Below, piece after piece: positions 5,401 to 16,096 of a DNA stretch of 52,961 nucleotides (its first letter is position 1; every line of letters begins with the position of its first letter). Source of the DNA: a virus (taxonomy: Duplodnaviria; Heunggongvirae; Uroviricota; Caudoviricetes); the IMG/VR virus record IMGVR_UViG_3300025769_000070. One strand, written 5' to 3'. The notes below the pieces were generated by a model that did not search any database, was not told the origin of the DNA, and saw only the letters and a program-made list of their open reading frames with translations. The translations under genes and the position numbers were made by a program.

Positions 5401-6162
5401 TTAGTTAAATCTTCGCCACTTTGCGGGAGATTGCTCCCAATTATTCATATCTAAAACCTGTCGTACAGGTCCAGTCTGATTGTATAGTTCTCGAAAAAGA
5501 GGAAGGTCATTAGTACTGTACGACCTATCCAAAACAGCATGGTCTGCACCAAAGTTGTTAGAGTTGCAGTGCATGACGACAGAAGGAGAATAATGCAATT
5601 TCCCACCCGCATTCTGCACACGATAAGCCAAGTCGTGGATGTTCATGTTAACATGCTCAAAGCGGCAGTCAATACCACCTAGAGCTTGAAACGTCTCAGT
5701 GTAGTACATTGGCACGGGAGCAATGAGATAATGAGTAGGAATTCCAATAAGCTGGTTGTCCCGATGCTTCCAAGATATGTAGTAGTCTTTAGTGCTACCA
5801 TTTAACTCAGAGTATGGTCCTTCTTCTGTGTAGCGAACAATAATACCATCTTCTTTTGGAGCGGCTAATAGTGTTTCAATACATTCTGCCAGTGCATTAG
5901 CCTTACAAACCCCATCGTCCGTCAACCATGTCATTAAAGTGCCTTTGGCTTGACATGCGGCTCTTTGAACACACCTAGAAGGGGAACCATAGTCTTCAAT
6001 GTAAGTGAGTCCTTCATACTCTTCCATTTTATTAGGACCAATGATAATTAGCTCATAAGTATAGTATCCAATAGAATCAGGAATACTGTCTAATAACGTA
6101 GGCAAACTGTCCGCACGAATGGTGGGAACAATTATGGTAAGGTCTGGGGTCGATAATGCCAT
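5401..6162 (-). CDS. glycosyltransferase, GT-A/GT2-like
   Basis: LTIIVPTIR, WLTDD, GGIDCRF, HDLAYR. Start moved to ATG 6162. Confidence 0.75.
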   Translation of the reverse strand: MALSTPDLTIIVPTIRADSLPTLLDSIPDSIGYYTYELIIIGPNKMEEYEGLTYIEDYGSPSRCVQRAACQAKGTLMTWLTDDGVCKANALAECIETLLAAPKEDGIIVRYTEEGPYSELNGSTKDYYISWKHRDNQLIGIPTHYLIAPVPMYYTETFQALGGIDCRFEHVNMNIHDLAYRVQNAGGKLHYSPSVVMHCNSNNFGADHAVLDRSYSTNDLPLFRELYNQTGPVRQVLDMNNWEQSPAKWRRFN

Positions 6163-6884
6163 ACCGAATCTACTTCTTTCCAATTATCTAATTTGACACG
6201 TGCAGAAAAAATTTGATCTGTTTCCCTATTAAAAAGTGGTTGGTCATCATTAATCTGTGCAAAATGTACAGGACCGTGATCACCAGAGGTTCCGGGAATA
6301 TACTTAACGGCACCAATATTAAGGCCGTTATTAATTACTCTACATCCCACCTTTTGTAATCTAGCCGCTAAATCCGTATGCCCAAAGCAAGTAACCTGAT
6401 ACTTACAATCAAACCCACCAAATTTCTCTAAGTAAGACCTTCTAACAAACGCCACATTGAAGATTTGCCACTCTGAATTAACCTTCCAGCCGCCCCCATA
6501 ACAGTGGTTAATAGAAAAATTAGTGACAGCCTCAACTCCCGCTTCGTTATAATTACCGATGACAACAGTGTCCTCAGATTCATTATAGACACAATCCATA
6601 AACTTATCGATGTCAAATGGCCCGGTCTCAAAATCATCAACCAACCATGTAACAAACTTACCTTCGGCAAGAAGAAGACCTATTTGTTGACATCTGTTAG
6701 GACTACCAAAATCCCGTACATATTTAACATTGCGGAATTCATCCACATCTGAATTATATTCAGGACCAACAAATATTACTTCAAAAGTATATTTACCTAC
6801 CGAAACGCCAATCTGTTCCACCAAAGCTTTCCAACCAGAAGTTCTGATGGATGGTATAATTATCGAAAGATCAGGCTTATTCAT
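6132..6884 (-). CDS. glycosyltransferase, GT-A/GT2-like
   Basis: LSIIIPSIR, WLVDD, GGFDCKY, HTDLAAR. Paralogue of its neighbour. Confidence 0.75.
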   Translation of the reverse strand: MNKPDLSIIIPSIRTSGWKALVEQIGVSVGKYTFEVIFVGPEYNSDVDEFRNVKYVRDFGSPNRCQQIGLLLAEGKFVTWLVDDFETGPFDIDKFMDCVYNESEDTVVIGNYNEAGVEAVTNFSINHCYGGGWKVNSEWQIFNVAFVRRSYLEKFGGFDCKYQVTCFGHTDLAARLQKVGCRVINNGLNIGAVKYIPGTSGDHGPVHFAQINDDQPLFNRETDQIFSARVKLDNWKEVDSVWHYRPQTLP

Positions 6885-7024
6885 AGCAAACAACCAATTT
6901 ATTTTCTAATTCAAACATAAAGATATCATCTAGTTTGTCCAATAATCTATTATCAATATATTTTGATTCATAAAAGAAAAACAAATCAAGTATATCTATC
7001 TGCATCTCTATGAAATGTATAGGA

Positions 7025-8026
7025 TTAATCATTCTTTGACCTCATATGTTCCACTACTTCATTTACAGAGTCTTGTAGACTAATATTAGCTTCAAACCCT
7101 AAGACTCTTTTAGCTTTTGATACATCAGGGGACCGTAATCGAACATCGTATTCATACGATGAACTACCAACGATTGATGGATTTTTTCCATGTATTGTAT
7201 TCCATACAATATAGGCGAGTTCTCTAACAGAAGTAGACACACTAGTCGAGATATTGAAATCATTATTAATACCATCTTCTGATTCTAAAGCTAATCTAAC
7301 TCCACGAGCAATATCTTTTCCGTGAGTGTAATGACGTACCTGCATACCATCACCAAGGATAGGTAGTGGATCGTCCGCATCAAGACACAAGGCTTTGTAA
7401 ACTAAATCTGGGAGTACGTGAGACATAAGCATCTTTATATTGCCGGAATATACTTTTTCTTCCCCAATAGCCTCTTCTTCTCCAACTCCTACACAGTTAA
7501 AAGGTCTAATTATAGTATAAGGCAATCCATACTGTTCATTAGCACCTTTAGCAAAATACTCAGATGATAGTTTTTGAAAACCATATGTTGAGCTTGGAGG
7601 CGGGGCTTTACTAACTTCATCTTCCGGTGTAGGATACTTATCAGTATTCTCAAAAACCATACTACTTGAAAGTACTACTATCCTTTTAAGGATATTCTCC
7701 TTATAAGATCTAATAGCTGAATCAAAAGTATTTGCTAGAATTCTCTCATTGGTTGATAATAGATCATAAGCATACTTATGAAAATAAGTAATTCCGCCAA
7801 TCATAGCTGCTCCTGCTATGATATAATCAGCGGAAATATCAGGAAAAGACTTAGCAAGATCGTGCCTTAATAATATAAATCTTTCATGCTTATCATGAGA
7901 ACGAGAAACGTTTCCGTACTTACTGTAATTATCAATCCCCGTTACATCATATCCAGCGTCCAAAAACTCATTACATAAATAACTACCTATAAATCCTTGA
8001 CTTCCAGTTATAATAATACTAGGCAT
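7025..8026 (-). CDS. NAD-dependent nucleotide-sugar epimerase/dehydratase (UDP-glucuronate decarboxylase-like)
   Basis: ITGSQGFIG, SSSMVF, YGFQK (YxxxK), RPFN. Start moved to ATG 8026, overlapping the upstream TAG. Confidence 0.85.
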   Translation of the reverse strand: MPSIIITGSQGFIGSYLCNEFLDAGYDVTGIDNYSKYGNVSRSHDKHERFILLRHDLAKSFPDISADYIIAGAAMIGGITYFHKYAYDLLSTNERILANTFDSAIRSYKENILKRIVVLSSSMVFENTDKYPTPEDEVSKAPPPSSTYGFQKLSSEYFAKGANEQYGLPYTIIRPFNCVGVGEEEAIGEEKVYSGNIKMLMSHVLPDLVYKALCLDADDPLPILGDGMQVRHYTHGKDIARGVRLALESEDGINNDFNISTSVSTSVRELAYIVWNTIHGKNPSIVGSSSYEYDVRLRSPDVSKAKRVLGFEANISLQDSVNEVVEHMRSKND

Positions 8027-8834
8027 AATATTCTCGTGTGTCCTTGAATGGTGTTGACTTATATTTTTTATTTGATTCCACTGTTGCCTGAACCATCGGC
8101 ATATCAACCCCTTGTTCTTTTGCCAGACTTAAAATAGCTGGTAAGTCTTTATTCCAGCAAATTGAACTCCATCCGCGTACATTTTCATTTACATCAAAGT
8201 ATTGGTCTGGTAGATTATTAGCTTGTAGCAATCCGCGTTTAACTGGAACATAATCTTCATTAAGAGAATTGCATAGCTCAAAGAACTCATTAGCAAATGA
8301 TACTCTAAGTGCCCCAAAGCAGTTGTTATAATATTTTATTAACTCTGCTTGAGTAATAGTACAGCATAAAGTTTTCTTAGGTAAATCTCCGTGGCAATCC
8401 CTAATTACCTGCTGACTATATTTTTCTTCAGTGCCAATAACAAGAACATTATTCAACTCGACAAAGTCTGTTACTGCTGATCTTTCTCTCAAGAATTCCG
8501 GACAGAAAACTAAATCTTGAAAACTAAAGTATTGTCCAGTATTACGCCATGCTACACAAGTTCCGGGCGGCACTGTAGATTTGATTACAACAATTCCACT
8601 GTATTTAGAATATTTTAGATCGTCTAATACTGACTTTACTATAGATGTATCACATGAACCGTCATGATTTGAAGGAGTTGGGACACAAATATATACAATA
8701 GGACAGTCTAGTAAAGAATGAAGGTCAGTCTCTAGTTTCTTATCGTGTTCATATACTTTATGGCCCTGTTTTTCGAAACCAAATTTACAGGCCGAACCGA
8801 CTATACCTTGACTACCAACTATGCCTATTTTCAT
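8019..8834 (-). CDS. UDP-glucose/GDP-mannose dehydrogenase family, lacking the C-terminal domain
   Basis: ICVPTP, IKSTVPPG, CPEFLRE, AELIKY.NN.F, catalytic C..KD (SSICWNKD). Confidence 0.85.
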   Translation of the reverse strand: MKIGIVGSQGIVGSACKFGFEKQGHKVYEHDKKLETDLHSLLDCPIVYICVPTPSNHDGSCDTSIVKSVLDDLKYSKYSGIVVIKSTVPPGTCVAWRNTGQYFSFQDLVFCPEFLRERSAVTDFVELNNVLVIGTEEKYSQQVIRDCHGDLPKKTLCCTITQAELIKYYNNCFGALRVSFANEFFELCNSLNEDYVPVKRGLLQANNLPDQYFDVNENVRGWSSICWNKDLPAILSLAKEQGVDMPMVQATVESNKKYKSTPFKDTREYYA

Positions 8835-8849
8835 TATGTGCCTTTAAAA

Positions 8850-9635
8850 TTATTTATAACCTAAATCGTTATATTCTTTTTCCTGCCCATTAAAACGAGT
8901 ATTCCATACATCTGGATATTCTTTATAATTCATAAAATATATGATATTCCTATCATTGTGATCTTGCCAGTCTCTAGTAAATATCGGTGTATCATGCCCT
9001 ATCTGAGCATTATGAATTGGTGCGTGATCACCGGAAATATTAGGCTGCCAATCAGCAGATGAAATCTCTGATTTTGAATTCCTGTAAGAAATATGATTTT
9101 GTTTTTGCAAACGAAATAATAGATCGTGTGTAGCATGATTCAGATAGTCATACTTACAATCAAATCCGCCATATGATATACATAGATCTCTAGACATTAG
9201 AAAATGAACACAAATTCCCCATGAGGGGTTTACTCCTCTATAGCGTGGATATGCGTTCCTTGCATACCAATACATATCTGGGAGTACCCTACCAGAATGA
9301 CTTTGTCCTTCTCTGTACCTCATTCCGACAATTAGATTATTATCTATATCATCTAGCTCATTAGAGATTACATGTGGAATGAATAGTGAGTCATCAACAG
9401 TGTGAAAAACATAATCCCCACCGCATTTAGATAATGCTATTTGAGCACATACGGTAGGAGATGCGAAGCTTTTTATCCAAGTCACATTAGGATTAGATAA
9501 AACAGATTCTGGCGGTTCAAAAGGTCCACACATAACCACTTCAAAATCGTGACGATCACATGAAGCTTCTAGGCTATCATACCATACTTGATGCAAATGA
9601 GTTCGTATGCTTGGCATGAATACTGATAATTTCAT
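8850..9635 (-). CDS. glycosyltransferase, GT-A/GT2-like
   Basis: LSVFMPSIR, HTVDD, GGFDCKY, HDLLFR. Confidence 0.75.
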   Translation of the reverse strand: MKLSVFMPSIRTHLHQVWYDSLEASCDRHDFEVVMCGPFEPPESVLSNPNVTWIKSFASPTVCAQIALSKCGGDYVFHTVDDSLFIPHVISNELDDIDNNLIVGMRYREGQSHSGRVLPDMYWYARNAYPRYRGVNPSWGICVHFLMSRDLCISYGGFDCKYDYLNHATHDLLFRLQKQNHISYRNSKSEISSADWQPNISGDHAPIHNAQIGHDTPIFTRDWQDHNDRNIIYFMNYKEYPDVWNTRFNGQEKEYNDLGYK

Positions 9636-9674
9636 TAATCTCTCACCGCTTCAATATGTATCAGGGAAATAATG

Positions 9675-10262
9675 CTAGGCAGTCTTTTTTGCCTCTACAT
9701 TCAAAGAAACAAGAATCCCATTACCTTTTTCTAATCTATTATGAGATAGCTTAATATCTCTATCACGAGCCGGAATATAAGCTTGAGAAAAATCGTCGCA
9801 ATATCCATGATCAACTTCCCACCAATTCCATCTGGAGACTTCATCAAATCCTGTATTCAATAAATCTTCTTTTAGTGTCTTAAAGTCCCAACCGTTGTAG
9901 TGAAAATCAAATGGATGACGTTGTGATCCATACAACAACGCAGATAATTCCCTCAAATCACCATTATAAATATACCTTTTACAAACAGCTTCAATATCTG
10001 GGACGGCTAACCTAAGAATCCCCCTAGGTTTTAAAAGTTTAAACCATCTGTTTAATGCTTTTAAAGAGTCTTCCTTTCCCAAATGTTCTAACATATGAGA
10101 ACAATAGATTAAATCCACGCTATTTTCTTTAAAAGTTTTTAACGTAAAGGCGTCGTCTACTACGTCTGGATTACATTCTTCTCTAATATCTACATTAATA
10201 AATCCAGGCAAGTGTTTATCATAGCAACCAAGATTTAGTTTTATATTTTTATCTGTTGACAT
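9675..10262 (-). CDS. class I SAM-dependent methyltransferase (type 11-like)
   Basis: LNLGC, INVDIR, DLIYCSHMLEHL, LKPRGILRL. Confidence 0.85.
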   Translation of the reverse strand: MSTDKNIKLNLGCYDKHLPGFINVDIREECNPDVVDDAFTLKTFKENSVDLIYCSHMLEHLGKEDSLKALNRWFKLLKPRGILRLAVPDIEAVCKRYIYNGDLRELSALLYGSQRHPFDFHYNGWDFKTLKEDLLNTGFDEVSRWNWWEVDHGYCDDFSQAYIPARDRDIKLSHNRLEKGNGILVSLNVEAKKTA

Positions 10263-11212
10263 TATATAGTATCAATCTTTATATTGTCGTAATTTAATAA
10301 ACCTAGATTTCCGACGAACTGATTATCCCTAATATAATCTTTCAGCCGTTCATCATTACAGAAAAAGCCATCGTACTTATCAGGATTATGCATAACAATG
10401 CCTTGACATTCTTCATAACCAAAACCAAACTCATGTCCCTTCTTTGCCAACTCAACAACTGAATCCACTAAAAAAGGATGGTCGTAGGTCGGTTTCCCCT
10501 GCATTAACCAAGAGTTGGGGTTGAAACCAGAACTAGGACCATCCATAGATTTAAGATGGGTAACAATAACATCTTTAGATAAAACAAATTTTTTCCTAAT
10601 TGCCGCACATAAAAAAGAAAATACAGATTCTGAACAAAAGCTGGCATAAATGTCCGGAAAAAGATATCCATACGCATCCATTATAGCCTTTGAAAAGATT
10701 TGGCAGTGAAGATTTATGGTTTTTCCAACAGGAATGTCGAAATTTCCATTTTTAAAAAATTGATGATTTTGAGTATGATCATAATGGTTTTCTCCCAAAT
10801 TAAACCACTGAAAATACCCACCATCTGAATCAACTTGAGCAGCGACCATTCCATAATCATCTGTGGCTAAGAGCTGGTAAAGAGAAAAGATGTCGGTCTT
10901 CTTGGTGAATTCTATGCCAGAATCTACGTAAAGATACCCCTCAAAATCGCCAAACAATTCCTTAGCCTTGAGAGCTGAGTGATTGAAGGTGACGTTGACG
11001 GGTAATGGCTCTTGAATCAGATTGAAGGTGACCGGCCTTGATACTTTTTTCTTCACATACTCCATCGCAGATCTAGAATTCATACAAGACGAAACAATAA
11101 CCTTAGAGTCAGTTATATCCTGATCTAAAATAGAATTTATTGCTTTAACATATTGCTGAGGGTGTTCACCTGAAATACCACATGTATTAAAAATAATAGC
11201 TAGCTTATTCAT
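10262..11212 (-). CDS. putative glycosyltransferase (GT-A-like)
   Basis: YVKAINSILDQD, LYVDSG; sits in the glycan cluster. Confidence 0.55.
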   Translation of the reverse strand: MNKLAIIFNTCGISGEHPQQYVKAINSILDQDITDSKVIVSSCMNSRSAMEYVKKKVSRPVTFNLIQEPLPVNVTFNHSALKAKELFGDFEGYLYVDSGIEFTKKTDIFSLYQLLATDDYGMVAAQVDSDGGYFQWFNLGENHYDHTQNHQFFKNGNFDIPVGKTINLHCQIFSKAIMDAYGYLFPDIYASFCSESVFSFLCAAIRKKFVLSKDVIVTHLKSMDGPSSGFNPNSWLMQGKPTYDHPFLVDSVVELAKKGHEFGFGYEECQGIVMHNPDKYDGFFCNDERLKDYIRDNQFVGNLGLLNYDNIKIDTI

Positions 11213-12471: not shown

Positions 12472-13114
12472 TTCCTTGATTAAATTCTTCAGATTTATTG
12501 ATATAAGAAGAAGCGTTTATAAAAGTAATCCCGTCACGATCTAGCCTACCGTAATTATAACAGTCTGGCTCGTCGTGAATATGTCCAAAGGCATGAATCA
12601 TTGGTTTAATTTCAAGCACTTTATTCATCAGGCTTTTACATCCAGAGTGGATATATCGTTTTCTTTTATTCTTGTCCTCACAAACATCAAGAATTCCTTT
12701 TGGAGGACCATGAGTAACTAGAATGTCACATTTAGGAACAGAATCCCATACTACCTGCATCCTGTTATGTTTCTTCATATAAGCCCAGTTATTCCCATAC
12801 GTAGGAGTATACGGAGATCCAAAAATTATAAGACCTTCTATACTGGTTGCTTCATGTATTAAGAACTTTACATTTGGGTAATTTTCACGCCTGATTAATC
12901 CTGCTTCTATCGCAGTAGAATGATTTCCCGGAACAAAGATCTTGTGTTCAACATCAAGTTTTGAAAACCATTCAAAAAATTTGTGAGATTCCCCTTCATT
13001 TATATGTGGGTTCTTATGATTAGACTCATCACCACAACAAATGATTACGTCAGTATTTGGGACGTATATTTTTTCGTGATTACCGTGAGTATCACTTATA
13101 AAAAAAAGATCCAT
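12455..13114 (-). CDS. calcineurin-like metallophosphoesterase
   Basis: ISDTHG, GD, GNH, THGPP, GHIH. Confidence 0.9.
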   Translation of the reverse strand: MDLFFISDTHGNHEKIYVPNTDVIICCGDESNHKNPHINEGESHKFFEWFSKLDVEHKIFVPGNHSTAIEAGLIRRENYPNVKFLIHEATSIEGLIIFGSPYTPTYGNNWAYMKKHNRMQVVWDSVPKCDILVTHGPPKGILDVCEDKNKRKRYIHSGCKSLMNKVLEIKPMIHAFGHIHDEPDCYNYGRLDRDGITFINASSYINKSEEFNQGIEYEY

Positions 13115-13288
13115 AGTATTCTTTTATAATAGGAGTATGATAATTATTATGAGTAATTCTATATTTATTAAAATTTTCTCTATTAAAATCATAATCTAGT
13201 ATTTTATCATTAATACTAAAAAATAAATCAACTATAACATTATCTATTTTCGACATTAAAAATTCTCATTTCTGGTAAAAGAGAAAGG

Positions 13289-13546
13289 CTATCTTCTGTA
13301 GCCATAGGGGATTGCCAAGTATTCTTGGTGGGAGAACTCCGGATTGACAAGGGGAAGATTATTATCCTCATAATATTTCCGGATAGCCTTCTCTCTGCAT
13401 TCCCGACAAGCCACCTTTAAATGCCGGACGGCATACCTATTCACTAACATGTCCGCCTCAGTGTACTTATTTACATAACATCTAGGACAAATATCCATTG
13501 TACGCAATTCGAACCAAACAAGTGAGAATTGATAGTTTCTAAACAC
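13289..13546 (-). CDS. hypothetical protein with two CxxC motifs
   Basis: CPRC and CREC; the true start may be the ATG of MDICPRC. Confidence 0.5.
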   Translation of the reverse strand: MFRNYQFSLVWFELRTMDICPRCYVNKYTEADMLVNRYAVRHLKVACRECREKAIRKYYEDNNLPLVNPEFSHQEYLAIPYGYRR

Positions 13547-13626
13547 AGTACTCTCTGTATGTCACCCCTGCCTTTATCTTTTACAAGAAAAATTACATTG
13601 TCAAGGAAGCCGACTAGGCTGACGCC

Positions 13627-13666
13627 ATTTGTCTTGGTAAACGAAGTTTACATAAACAAGACAAAT
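13627..13666. repeat. inverted repeat / hairpin
   Basis: ATTTGTCTTG-GTAAAC-GAA-GTTTAC-(ATAAA bulge)-CAAGACAAAT: 16 perfectly paired bases. Confidence 0.7.
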
Positions 13667-14027
13667 ACCCACGGTAGTGTCCATTATTTAAAACTTAAAA
13701 AAAGTAAGATAGTGGAAACGGAATCCGTGCAGAGGAAAAACACTAAAACTAAAAGACCAGCAGAGTTCTTTGTATCGGAAATTTCGCTCCGGAGTCAGCT
13801 AGAGTGGCGTTTTTCTGCTGTCTCAACGGGAGACTCTGTAAGCTGGGAGACGCCGAACCAGCCGTTCTGTTAGTATAGCTCAGTTTTGCCAAAAAAGTTA
13901 GGATTTTTTAGAAAAATTGTTCGACTTGGCGGATATAGTCTGCTAAACTTCCTCAGATGACGACTGCCGCCAAGAGATCGGGTTTCGAAAGAATGTGTCT
14001 GCGAAAGCAGAGAAGGTGGACGCAGTG

Positions 14028-14120
14028 GCATAACGCCCCGGCAATAACCGGGCACGAAAGGTTGACGATGACTACACAAGCGAGCGGGCAGAGTGCTCCG
14101 AGTTCATTGCCTTGTTCTAC
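14028..14120 (-). mobile_element. integron attC-like site 1 (93 bp)
   Basis: Minus strand: R'' GTAGAAC, 5-nt spacer, L'' AATGAACT with an unpaired 4th base, stem CGG(A)GCAC, loop, L' GGTTATT, R' GTTATGC. Confidence 0.75.
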
Positions 14121-14377
14121 GTCTTCGCCGGATCGCGGGCGATTGCCGGATTCGGTTTCCGACTTGAACTGGCAGGAGCACCGCCCAGGAACTGGGTACT
14201 ACGACAACGACATACTATTGGCCGCAGTGCCCGTGAACGGCTCAACGGGTTGGGCGTATGAACTGGCTGTGATTTCTGCGGTATTCAACGGCGATTATTT
14301 GGACTGGTACTGCAACGGTGAGTTGTGGGAATGGGCGATCGACGATGCTGAGTTCGTTGTGAGGATTTGACGTAGAA
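14034..14377 (-). mobile_element. integron-type gene cassette 1 (ORF antisense to attC)
   Basis: ORF body flanked by a perfect 10-bp inverted pair GTTCTACGTC (14114-14123) / GACGTAGAAC (14369-14378), as expected for one cassette's R''/R' cores. Confidence 0.7.
14068..14370 (+). CDS. cassette-borne hypothetical protein (100 aa)
   Basis: ATG 14068 follows GAAAGG inside the attC1 loop. The stop abuts the attC2 core. Confidence 0.65.
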   Translation: MTTQASGQSAPSSLPCSTSSPDRGRLPDSVSDLNWQEHRPGTGYYDNDILLAAVPVNGSTGWAYELAVISAVFNGDYLDWYCNGELWEWAIDDAEFVVRI

Positions 14378-14462
14378 CGCCCCACATCACCCGGTTGCGG
14401 CGGGTGACTTGGATTTCTAATTCCGCGTTCGACCGCAACTCGGGTGCATGTGTTTGTTCTTT
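14372..14462 (-). mobile_element. integron attC-like site 2 (91 bp)
   Basis: Minus strand: R'' AAAGAAC, spacer AAACA, L'' CAT(G)CACC, CG(A)GTTGCGG stem / CCGCAACCG, L' GGTGATG, 6-nt spacer, R' GTTCTAC; two extrahelical bases. Confidence 0.85.
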
Positions 14463-14727
14463 TGGTGTACTGATGGCACGTGGCATTTCATTGTCAGAAG
14501 CGATTGATGCGTCTGAGGCTGATTGGCAGTCGAAGCATGGGAAGTGCATGCTGTGCGAGGGCGGTCCGCCAAACGACAGCGGGCAACACTGTTACGATGG
14601 ACACATTTCAGATTGCCCGAACGTGCGGGAGCCGTGCGGGCTGTGTCACGGCTGTCTGCCGCCGGGGGAGATTTGCCGAGGCTGTAATCGGATGAACCCG
14701 TACGCATACCAGTGCTGACCAAAAGAA
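14378..14727 (-). mobile_element. integron-type gene cassette 2 (ORF antisense to attC)
   Basis: ORF body flanked by a perfect 11-bp inverted pair GTTCTTTTGGT (14456-14466) / ACCAAAAGAAC (14718-14728). Confidence 0.72.
14395..14718 (+). CDS. cassette-borne Cys-rich (putative Zn-binding) protein; start uncertain
   Basis: CMLC, CGLC, CRGC motifs. The stop abuts the attC3 core. The start could be TTG/GTG within attC2 or a downstream ATG. Confidence 0.6.
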   Translation: MRRVTWISNSAFDRNSGACVCSFGVLMARGISLSEAIDASEADWQSKHGKCMLCEGGPPNDSGQHCYDGHISDCPNVREPCGLCHGCLPPGEICRGCNRMNPYAYQC

Positions 14728-14812
14728 CGTTTAAGGTAAACGGGTTGCCGGAAAGGGTTTTCAATGTCAGATTCAGCGTCGTCGGCAACTCCGGTTGACC
14801 GACTGGTTATGC
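14722..14812 (-). mobile_element. integron attC-like site 3 (91 bp)
   Basis: Minus strand: R'' GCATAAC, spacer CAGTC, L'' GGT(C)AACC, G(A)GTTGCCG stem, L' GTTTACC, 6-nt spacer, R' GTTCTTT. The extrahelical bases read G and T on the plus (bottom) strand, as in canonical attC. Confidence 0.82.
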
Positions 14813-15150
14813 CGCGTGTAGGCATCTATTTGGTGAGTCGAACGAGTTGCTGGGAAGGTCAGCCATGCGACGAAGCCTACGAAGTAGAAATGATAAAGGT
14901 TGATCGTCGTACTGTTGACGACCCGAAGAAGATACCAGTCAACAACGGAACGGACGGAGATTGGTACGAACGTGGAACAAATCATCGAATAGAAGACGGA
15001 AAAATCTGCCGTGATCTTGGGTTTTATAGTAGATGGGCGGTTCAGGTTAATGACATTATGGATTTTGTAGACGATCACGGCTGTTGCGTGGTAAGCCGTG
15101 ACAGCGAAGGATTCGCGACTATTGAGATCTATGACGATTATCGAGAGTAG
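14764..15150 (+). CDS. phage-type hypothetical protein starting inside attC3
   Basis: GAAAGG then ATG 14764 in the attC3 loop; acidic C-terminus IEIYDDYRE. Confidence 0.75.
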   Translation: MSDSASSATPVDRLVMPRVGIYLVSRTSCWEGQPCDEAYEVEMIKVDRRTVDDPKKIPVNNGTDGDWYERGTNHRIEDGKICRDLGFYSRWAVQVNDIMDFVDDHGCCVVSRDSEGFATIEIYDDYRE

Positions 15151-15216
15151 CAGATATAAACATGGTAATTTCAAACGACGATTATCCGTCACTCAAGTTT
15201 ACTAAAGGTAAGCCAG

Positions 15217-15513
15217 ATGTCTTGGAAACGTTTTGCTGTCAGAATTGTAAGATATCTGTTTCCGTGGATGGTAATTGAGCATCCCGTAATGAGTTTGACT
15301 GAGTTCAATCAAATGGAGCTTTGGCGGTGGTGTATGCCGGAAGAGTTTTCGTTTGGACAGTCGGGCTTAGAAGACACATTACAGCCTATACCTCCACGTT
15401 TCAGGAAATGCAACCGGGATTTAGATGTAGCGGCGAGAACACATCGACTTCGCGTTCAAATTGCGTTGTTGCGGAAACAGATGGGATGTCCACCGATTTA
15501 TTGGAAAAATTAG
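15217..15513 (+). CDS. hypothetical protein
   Basis: 98-aa ORF. Confidence 0.5.
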   Translation: MSWKRFAVRIVRYLFPWMVIEHPVMSLTEFNQMELWRWCMPEEFSFGQSGLEDTLQPIPPRFRKCNRDLDVAARTHRLRVQIALLRKQMGCPPIYWKN

Positions 15514-15636
15514 TTATGAAAATTAAAACTTTTATAATGAAGCTGAAGTGACTAAGTTGGGGGGATAAACTGAATGAGTTTCTAGGTTCCAGATGAGGAA
15601 AAAATGAGTACAGGCGAATATAAGAATTGAGGTTTT

Positions 15637-15879
15637 ATGGACAATAAATCAAAATTAAATTATGCAGTTGATTGGTTTACTAATCTATCTTCAAAACAGC
15701 AATCTGAAGTAGTACGTGAATTATTTCATCATGCAATCACTTCCGAATGGATTAATGTTTGGAGTTTAGAAGACCGGAAAGAAATGGTTGAAGATGAAGG
15801 ATTTAGCCAAGCAGAGGTCGATGCTCCTTATTTTACAACATGTGGTGAACCACTAGTTTCATTAGATGAGAGTAATTAA
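15637..15879 (+). CDS. hypothetical protein
   Basis: 80-aa ORF with GAGG RBS. Confidence 0.6.
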   Translation: MDNKSKLNYAVDWFTNLSSKQQSEVVRELFHHAITSEWINVWSLEDRKEMVEDEGFSQAEVDAPYFTTCGEPLVSLDESN

Positions 15880-16096
15880 AGTTATGAATAATGAAGATTT
15901 CTTAGCTGAAAAAGAAAAAAGAATACAGTTGTACATAGAACGTGCATCAAGAGAATGTGACCTGTTCAGTGGAGAACCTATCAAGAAAGAGGTGAAACTA
16001 AATAAAGAAGAAATTTCATGGCTAAAAAGCATTGGACTTAAGTAATCTTGACAAAATTTTGAGAATTCACCGCACTCTAACCGAAAGCAGGATATA

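Follow-up and report, generated by a model that had tools for sequence, protein, structure and literature searches.

A short integrase-less integron cassette array (CALIN), carrying three attC sites of the Planctomycetota type and served by an integrase provided in trans, is the reading that we favor for a compact region of an uncultured marine phage genome, with a probability of roughly three in four. Integrons are gene-capture devices of bacteria. The phage is represented in IMG/VR by a record of 142,148 nt (94% complete), and the stretch of DNA analyzed here, hereafter the window, comprises 52,961 nt corresponding to bases 89178–142138 of this record. Within the window, three attCs are packed within 785 nt with no intI nearby, the arrangement by which CALINs are recognized being at least two close attCs and no intI in the vicinity (as used in PMC9892861). 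A previous sequence-only reading had proposed a CALIN-like attC array at this position. The identity of the sites holds, whereas strand and crossover point have to be corrected: the G|TT boundary given there belongs to the minus strand, the crossover on the plus strand being at AA|C, and the genes are inverted with respect to their sites.

Layout of the array and architecture of its sites

The array occupies the highest-GC stretch of the 142-kb genome, positions 14001–15000 having 55% GC for a genome mean of 37%, and the GC-rich island which holds it reaches past the array on both sides. At about 13.5 kb, the genes switch from the minus to the plus strand and the island starts the rightward gene block. 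The features are listed below in window coordinates.

13930–15520: GC-rich island holding the array, 44–55% GC against a genome mean of 37%
14003–14725: segment swapped in close relatives (blastn boundaries 14002 and 14726, flanks 98.7–99.9% identical)
14028–14120, plus strand (plus being the bottom strand): attC e1, 93 nt; R' GCATAAC 14028–14034, R'' GTTCTAC 14114–14120; predicted crossover between 14033 and 14034, between AA and C of the left box
14034–14377, plus strand: cassette A, 344 nt; e1 body, ORF A and left box GACGTAGAA; bounded by inverted repeat I15
14068–14370, plus strand: ORF A, 100 aa; 4 homologues
14372–14462, plus strand: attC e2, 91 nt, the best preserved; R' GTAGAAC 14372–14378, R'' GTTCTTT 14456–14462; predicted crossover between 14377 and 14378, at AA|C of the left box
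14378–14727, plus strand: cassette B, 350 nt; e2 body, ORF B and left box ACCAAAAGAA; bounded by inverted repeat I7
14473–14718, plus strand: ORF B, 81 aa, Cys-rich; two homologues
14722–14812, plus strand: attC e3, 91 nt; R' AAAGAAC 14722–14728, R'' GTTATGC 14806–14812; predicted crossover between 14727 and 14728, at AA|C of the left box
14728–15150, plus strand: terminal unit, e3 body and ORF C; constant across all relatives, with no attC after it
14764 or 14809 to 15150, plus strand: ORF C, 128 aa; 72 homologues, small proteins in phage-like contigs

The three imperfect palindromes of 93, 91 and 91 bp with AAC...GTT cores described by the sequence-only reading were recovered with the same coordinates and lengths, and these cores, present in all three sites, are (nearly) invariant in 38 relatives. 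On the plus strand, e2 consists of R' GTAGAAC, a 6-nt spacer, a 7-nt L', the loop, an 8-nt L'' with an extra C, a 5-nt spacer and R'' GTTCTTT, its 3' arm having a bulged T and a bulged C located 7 nt apart. Regarding the attC geometry 7-5-8 ... 7-6-7 with two bulged bases in the same arm, e2 and e3 match the layout of the aadA1 attC, while e1 matches the attC layout except for one extra bulge and a one-base shift. The 5-nt spacer, 8-nt L'' and unpaired fourth base formerly ascribed to every site are thus accurate for e2 (on the minus strand) and for e3, and for e1 apart from this bulge and shift. When DNA folding was compared with shuffled sequences, only e2 proved better on its own (z −3.85), e1 and e3 having z values of +0.56 and −0.50, respectively. 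In e3, an A at 14740, where all relatives have a C, breaks one pair beside the L box and halves the score of e3 with a model made from class 1 attCs (R2, see below), which gives 15.7 bits here vs 27.9 and 30.2 bits for its counterparts in the related contigs L005 and L008.

Each of the two complete cassettes was said to be bounded by exact inverted repeats of 10 and 11 bp, and both repeats are indeed present: I15 (10 nt) pairs 14114–14123 with 14369–14378, and I7 (11 nt) pairs 14456–14466 with 14718–14728. Inverted pairs of the type GTT+6...6+AAC are not more frequent genome-wide than in shuffled sequences (15 vs 19.8), so the repeats alone are not significant. Their significance comes from their position, i.e., from the complementarity between adjacent sites: in related arrays, the boxes of adjacent sites match over 5.0 nt beyond GTT/AAC (50 pairs) vs 1.17 nt for boxes within a site or of non-adjacent sites. 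Such chimeric boxes are shared by the chromosomal arrays of Planctomycetota, with a mean box extension of 4.5 nt compared with these 5.0 nt. Owing to the chimeric boxes, any such cassette, once circular, would have a site paired throughout. The complementarity is intact, over 9–11 nt, for cassettes A, B, D, E and F, the last three being found in relatives (9–10 nt). An 8-nt match between the left box of e1 and the right box of e3 was considered as the mark of an ancestral site and rejected, GCATAAC/GTTATGC being the box most often met in the family.

ORFs A, B and C are real genes, since protein homologues exist for each of them. One homologue of ORF A is located in a phage-like contig with 57% GC, where DNA homology stops at AAC, and the ORF B homologue of contig L002 is also preceded by a site of the type described by model R1 (see below). 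Pfam searches with ORFs A, B and C and their neighbors gave nothing significant, and a search of the ESM Atlas with ORF B retrieved just unnamed viral clusters, all below 0.9. For ORF C, the predicted fold is confident (pLDDT 90.8); its sole structural match is an AlphaFold DB cluster named DUF4288, the fold search having returned no PDB match. These small proteins may have accessory functions. In planctomycete arrays (688 kb) and at 43 viral loci, the phage cargo genes were found nowhere beyond contigs L001–L003.

Several minor observations were made at the edges of the array. An ORF starting at a conserved ATG (13957–14370, 137 aa) keeps its frame across the allele-specific junction and e1 and continues into the first cassette gene, and the equivalent ORF of L005 (5259–5630, 123 aa) likewise enters the first cassette gene in frame; this may reflect either coincidence or a genuine N-terminal fusion. 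Directly after the stop codon of ORF C, AGCAGATATAAAC at 15150–15161 resembles GCAGATAAC, the left box of cassette E in relatives, and may be a decayed box marking a former end of the array. Downstream of the array, in the same island, there is a further ORF of 98 aa (15217–15513, 44–50% GC) without attC.

Covariance models and kinship with Planctomycetota integrons

Matches to a family pattern based on e2 and e3 were found in 43 viral contigs, and 38 relatives of the phage sites were aligned to build a covariance model, R1, with a 21-pair hairpin. In this alignment, 98.4% of the cells are paired and 103 double substitutions are observed vs 30 expected, a value reached in none of 500 shuffles. 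Searched against the phage's own genome, R1 finds only e2 (81.3 bits), e3 (70.9 bits) and e1 (28.3 bits), all on the plus strand. As a reference, we used the class 1 integron of a phage P1 record (MH445380, cited in PMC9892861), which carries aadA1, aadA2, cmlA1, qacH, estX, psp and a dfrA cassette. In these 11 kb, R1 recovers seven of the seven class 1 attCs with E values from 3e-7 to 3e-4 and nothing else below E 3. All these matches lie on the strand opposite to the resistance genes, and R1 therefore models the bottom strand.

The sequence-only reading had suggested a search with an attC covariance model. As a surrogate, a second model, R2, was built from the seven class 1 attCs only, R1 being used to aid their alignment. 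Run over both strands of the 53-kb window with filters off, R2 ranks as its top three matches, on the plus strand only, e2 (28.9 bits, E 1e-5), e1 (24.6 bits, E 1.8e-4) and e3 (15.7 bits, E 0.065), the next match reaching 10.8 bits. As a control, the three attCs of the phage TJE1 CALIN were found with E values of 2e-7 or better. An Rfam scan of positions 13000–16000 returned no attC match, just two sub-threshold chance matches, and neither the island nor a related array had a blastn match among 50,697 phage records.

Planctomycetes are among the taxa known to possess their own type of attC (Ghaly et al., 2021, PMC8352920). The family pattern occurs in more than 120 bacterial stretches, and 74 of the 80 bacterial stretches among the matches listed belong to Planctomycetota. 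Five such pattern-bearing genomes were searched with an integron-integrase model and all gave matches, four of them above the cut-off. In two complete genomes, those of Stieleria bergensis and Lacipirellula limnantheis, the R1 arrays start 1.6 kb and 0.7 kb, respectively, from an intI gene scoring 439 and 400 bits vs a TIGR02249 cut-off of 265; there, the arrays are divergent from intI and R1 matches the bottom strand. The attCs of these sedentary chromosomal integrons, lying in arrays beside intI, fall into the same sequence and structure family as the phage sites, with R1 scores of 45–86 bits. Judged by this kinship, the phage sites are attCs of the Planctomycetota type. The site type ties an uncultured phage to one bacterial phylum and provides a possible clue to its host; as the phage has 37% GC vs 50–60% for this attC type and its cargo, a planctomycete is no more than a candidate host. 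The ribonucleotide reductase gave no indication of the host. The GC-rich island may have entered the phage as one block. By nearest neighbors, e1–e3 could be assigned neither to the viral nor to the bacterial sites in preference to the other.

Regarding cargo, the chromosomal and viral cassette pools have almost nothing in common, with five long DNA matches in 688 kb, four of which fall on one contig of a metagenome-assembled genome (MAG); two viral contigs match this contig at 99.8% or more, and it is probably mis-binned phage DNA. MAG contig L100, labelled Candidatus Kapaibacterium, is 99.8–99.9% identical to the viral contigs L045 and L011 over 3.7 kb and 1.4 kb, respectively; it is probably a phage contig mis-binned into a bacterial MAG, and the few pattern matches outside Planctomycetota may have the same cause.

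Cassette turnover and gene orientation

Among close relatives of the phage, the locus exists as three alleles inside flanks which are 98.7–99.9% identical. Cassettes A and B are found here and in L010, D and E in six contigs (L004–L007, L009 and L193), and D and F in L008. Relative to the window, identity ends at 14002 and returns at the AAC of e3 (14726); the left edge of the variable block (14002/14003) does not coincide with an attC box. The clearest case is the comparison of L005 with L008, which differ by one cassette, E (327 nt) vs F (278 nt): sequence identity between the two contigs amounts to 99.3% as far as ...GGATAACGA and to 100% from the ATAAC of e3 onwards. From this pattern of identity, the body of a site moves with the gene downstream, and the left box stays with the gene upstream. 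Variation at the exact boundaries, on which the sequence-only reading had made its proposal depend, is thus found among relatives, as three alleles and one single-cassette difference. Moreover, unrelated arrays of other viral contigs share cassettes running from one AAC to the next AAC and 99% identical. An empty-site junction pattern was found in none of the viral contigs, and a left-flank pattern searched in metagenome and viral contigs retrieved solely the D-E allele again. Once made, an allele could pass from one co-infecting phage to another through ordinary homologous recombination. The locus displays a natural replacement of cassettes among phages whose genomes are nearly identical, the breakpoints lying where cleavage is predicted.

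As a separate observation, the unrelated viral contigs L018 (4880–4963) and L019 (minus strand) share only an 84-nt attC body, 98.8% identical, their sequences diverging precisely at x|AAC and at G|TT on either side of it. Homogenization of the sites, of the kind seen in sedentary integrons, may account for this, or else the other strand may have recombined.

The plus strand of the window is the bottom, i.e., recombining, strand of the attCs, which places the predicted crossover at AA|C of the left box (G|TT on the minus strand). ORFs A, B and C are encoded on the plus strand and depart from the canonical cassette layout, in which the gene is on the top strand and the attC at its 3' end. This inverted layout is recurrent: in other viral contigs, the longer ORF is on the bottom strand in 79 of 93 cassettes (median cassette 413 nt), whereas the gene is on the top strand in 60 of 71 cassettes of Planctomycetota chromosomes (median 604 nt). 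With the genes in this orientation, each attC forms the 5' leader of its own gene and sometimes contains the start codon. An ATG opening the cassette gene is present in the loop of 34% of phage-borne sites vs 4% of bacterial ones; here, the ATG of ORF A (14068) is in the loop of e1, and e3 has one ATG in its loop (14764) and another in its right box (14809). At the other end, the stop codon of the gene is the TAA of an xTAAC box in 37 of about 80 phage cassettes. In a limited search of the literature, we found no description of such an inverted layout nor of cassette-precise polymorphism within one lineage. Two points hence appear to be new, namely the inverted arrangement of the genes and a turnover of cassettes visible within a single phage lineage.

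Proposed integrase in trans, competing explanations and known systems

The absence of a tyrosine recombinase from the window, reported by the sequence-only reading, extends to the whole record: the 142,148 nt (94% complete) contain neither tyrosine (PF00589, TIGR02249) nor serine (PF00239) recombinase. An integron integrase is likewise absent from five further array-bearing viral fragments. One complete relative carries an ordinary phage integrase, which is not an IntI, and one array-bearing contig, 100% complete and without tyrosine recombinase, carries head, portal, terminase and tail genes and represents a true tailed phage. The array is not a complete integron, having neither intI nor a recognizable attI nor any further match to R1 or R2, and no sigma-70-like promoter was found on the plus strand between 13400 and 15700. 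Because the 142-kb record encodes no tyrosine or serine recombinase, we infer that a host IntI acts on the phage sites, which is reasonable as the sites are of the type of Planctomycetota integrons and these adjoin intI.

The following mechanism is proposed. In its single-stranded form, the plus strand would fold into a hairpin of R box, unpaired spacer and L box with the bulged bases on the 3' arm. An integron integrase supplied in trans, probably by the host cell in which recombination would then take place, would cut between the A and the C of the 5' AAC box, and the units excised or inserted would be C-body-GTT box-gene-box-AA. The array would be read together with the rightward gene block of the phage, each attC serving as the 5' leader of its gene.

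Although the sites would be true attCs by descent, the whole island could alternatively be a passive relic that arrived in a single copying event, as one block, the source being a planctomycete phage or chromosome and the route illegitimate or homologous recombination. No integrase would then act in this phage, and the alleles would have been made elsewhere and imported by homologous recombination. Such a history would account for a GC island extending past the array on both sides, a left boundary which is not at a box, an e3 degraded compared with its copies in relatives, three sites vs 8–12 in other viral contigs and a phage record devoid of integrase. It is nevertheless unlikely in view of L005 and L008, which differ by exactly one cassette inside flanks 99.3–100% identical and thus point to a site-specific event within this lineage or a very close one, and in view of box complementarity, which has remained intact in all five cassettes (A, B, D, E and F).

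A quite different view, to which we attach very little probability, is that the hairpins are mainly RNA or transcription elements (leaders, translational-control elements or terminators) placed before early genes and shuffled by homologous recombination between the repeats. Homologous recombination in a repeat would not fix breakpoints at AA|C, nor would it account for the 7-6-7...8-5-7 geometry, which is specific to attCs, and its two bulged bases; moreover, the same family is located beside intI in bacteria, where the genes are on the other strand, and the plus strand lacks a sigma-70-like promoter. Such elements are favored by sites that immediately precede the genes and share their coding strand, by start codons located in the loop (34% of phage-borne vs 4% of bacterial sites) and by two terminator-like matches inside e2, and a second role of the attC hairpin in expression is still conceivable. 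Chance palindromes in a GC-rich insert would agree with the genome-wide number of exact GTT...AAC inverted pairs, which does not exceed chance, and with e1 and e3 folding no better than shuffles; however, two independent covariance models put exactly e1–e3 on top, the stems covary and homologous sites are counted in the hundreds. The covariation, together with the R1, R2 and class 1 attC results, refutes this explanation, whose probability is negligible.

The integrase-less attC array served in trans, i.e., the reading that we favor, has precedents, as Qi et al. (2023, PMC9892861) have already reported CALINs from a few sequenced phages and observed recombination by IntI1 for five of six attCs of this kind. 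Like the array described here, the one of Tetrasphaera phage TJE1 (PMC9892861) has at least two attCs and small cassettes without intI in the genome of a tailed phage, and the class 1 model R2 finds the sites of both. The two differ in their layout, which is canonical in TJE1 (genes on the top strand, site at the 3' end) and inverted here (bottom strand, site at the 5' end). Unlike TJE1, the site type here is that of Planctomycetota, and nearly identical phages differ by whole cassettes. The attCs of class 1 integrons (MH445380) share the 7-5-8...7-6-7 boxes, the AAC/GTT cores and a bulged T and a bulged G or C located 7 nt apart on the same arm; they differ by their box sequences and their loop, which is longer here (83–85 nt from AAC to GTT vs matches of about 71–97 nt overall). 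In contrast to class 1 integrons, there is no attI, Pc promoter or intI near the phage array.

Among phage elements which shuffle genes, the promoter-stem-loop (PeSL) cassettes of T4-type phages, reportedly described by Arbiol and colleagues in 2010, are said to carry an early promoter and to be shuffled by homologous recombination. PeSLs resemble the present system by repeated hairpins preceding small accessory genes, a variable region and gene shuffling. Unlike PeSLs, the phage sites have no promoter match, their breakpoints are fixed at AA|C and they are attCs by model and kinship.

A broader scenario, which we advance tentatively and consider somewhat less than evenly probable, is that phages meeting Planctomycetota integrases keep integrase-less arrays of their own, with the attC type of the host, inverted genes and the hairpin as leader, often with the start codon inside it, and that this phage-specific pool of cassettes, distinct from that of bacteria, relies on the host IntI for the exchange of early accessory genes; the marine phage described here, with its 37% GC, would have tapped this pool. 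The inverted layout, consistent over at least 30 uncultured viral contigs, would imply that phages possess their own cassettes and do not only ferry bacterial ones. Such a pool would bear on the origin of cassettes and on the way in which integrase-less arrays arise.

Finally, a larger array was noticed in a 43-kb complete phage (G001, contig L189), in which positions 5800–11000 contain at least 12 attC cassettes on the same strand. This phage has ParB-like and PAPS-reductase-like genes and is without tyrosine recombinase.
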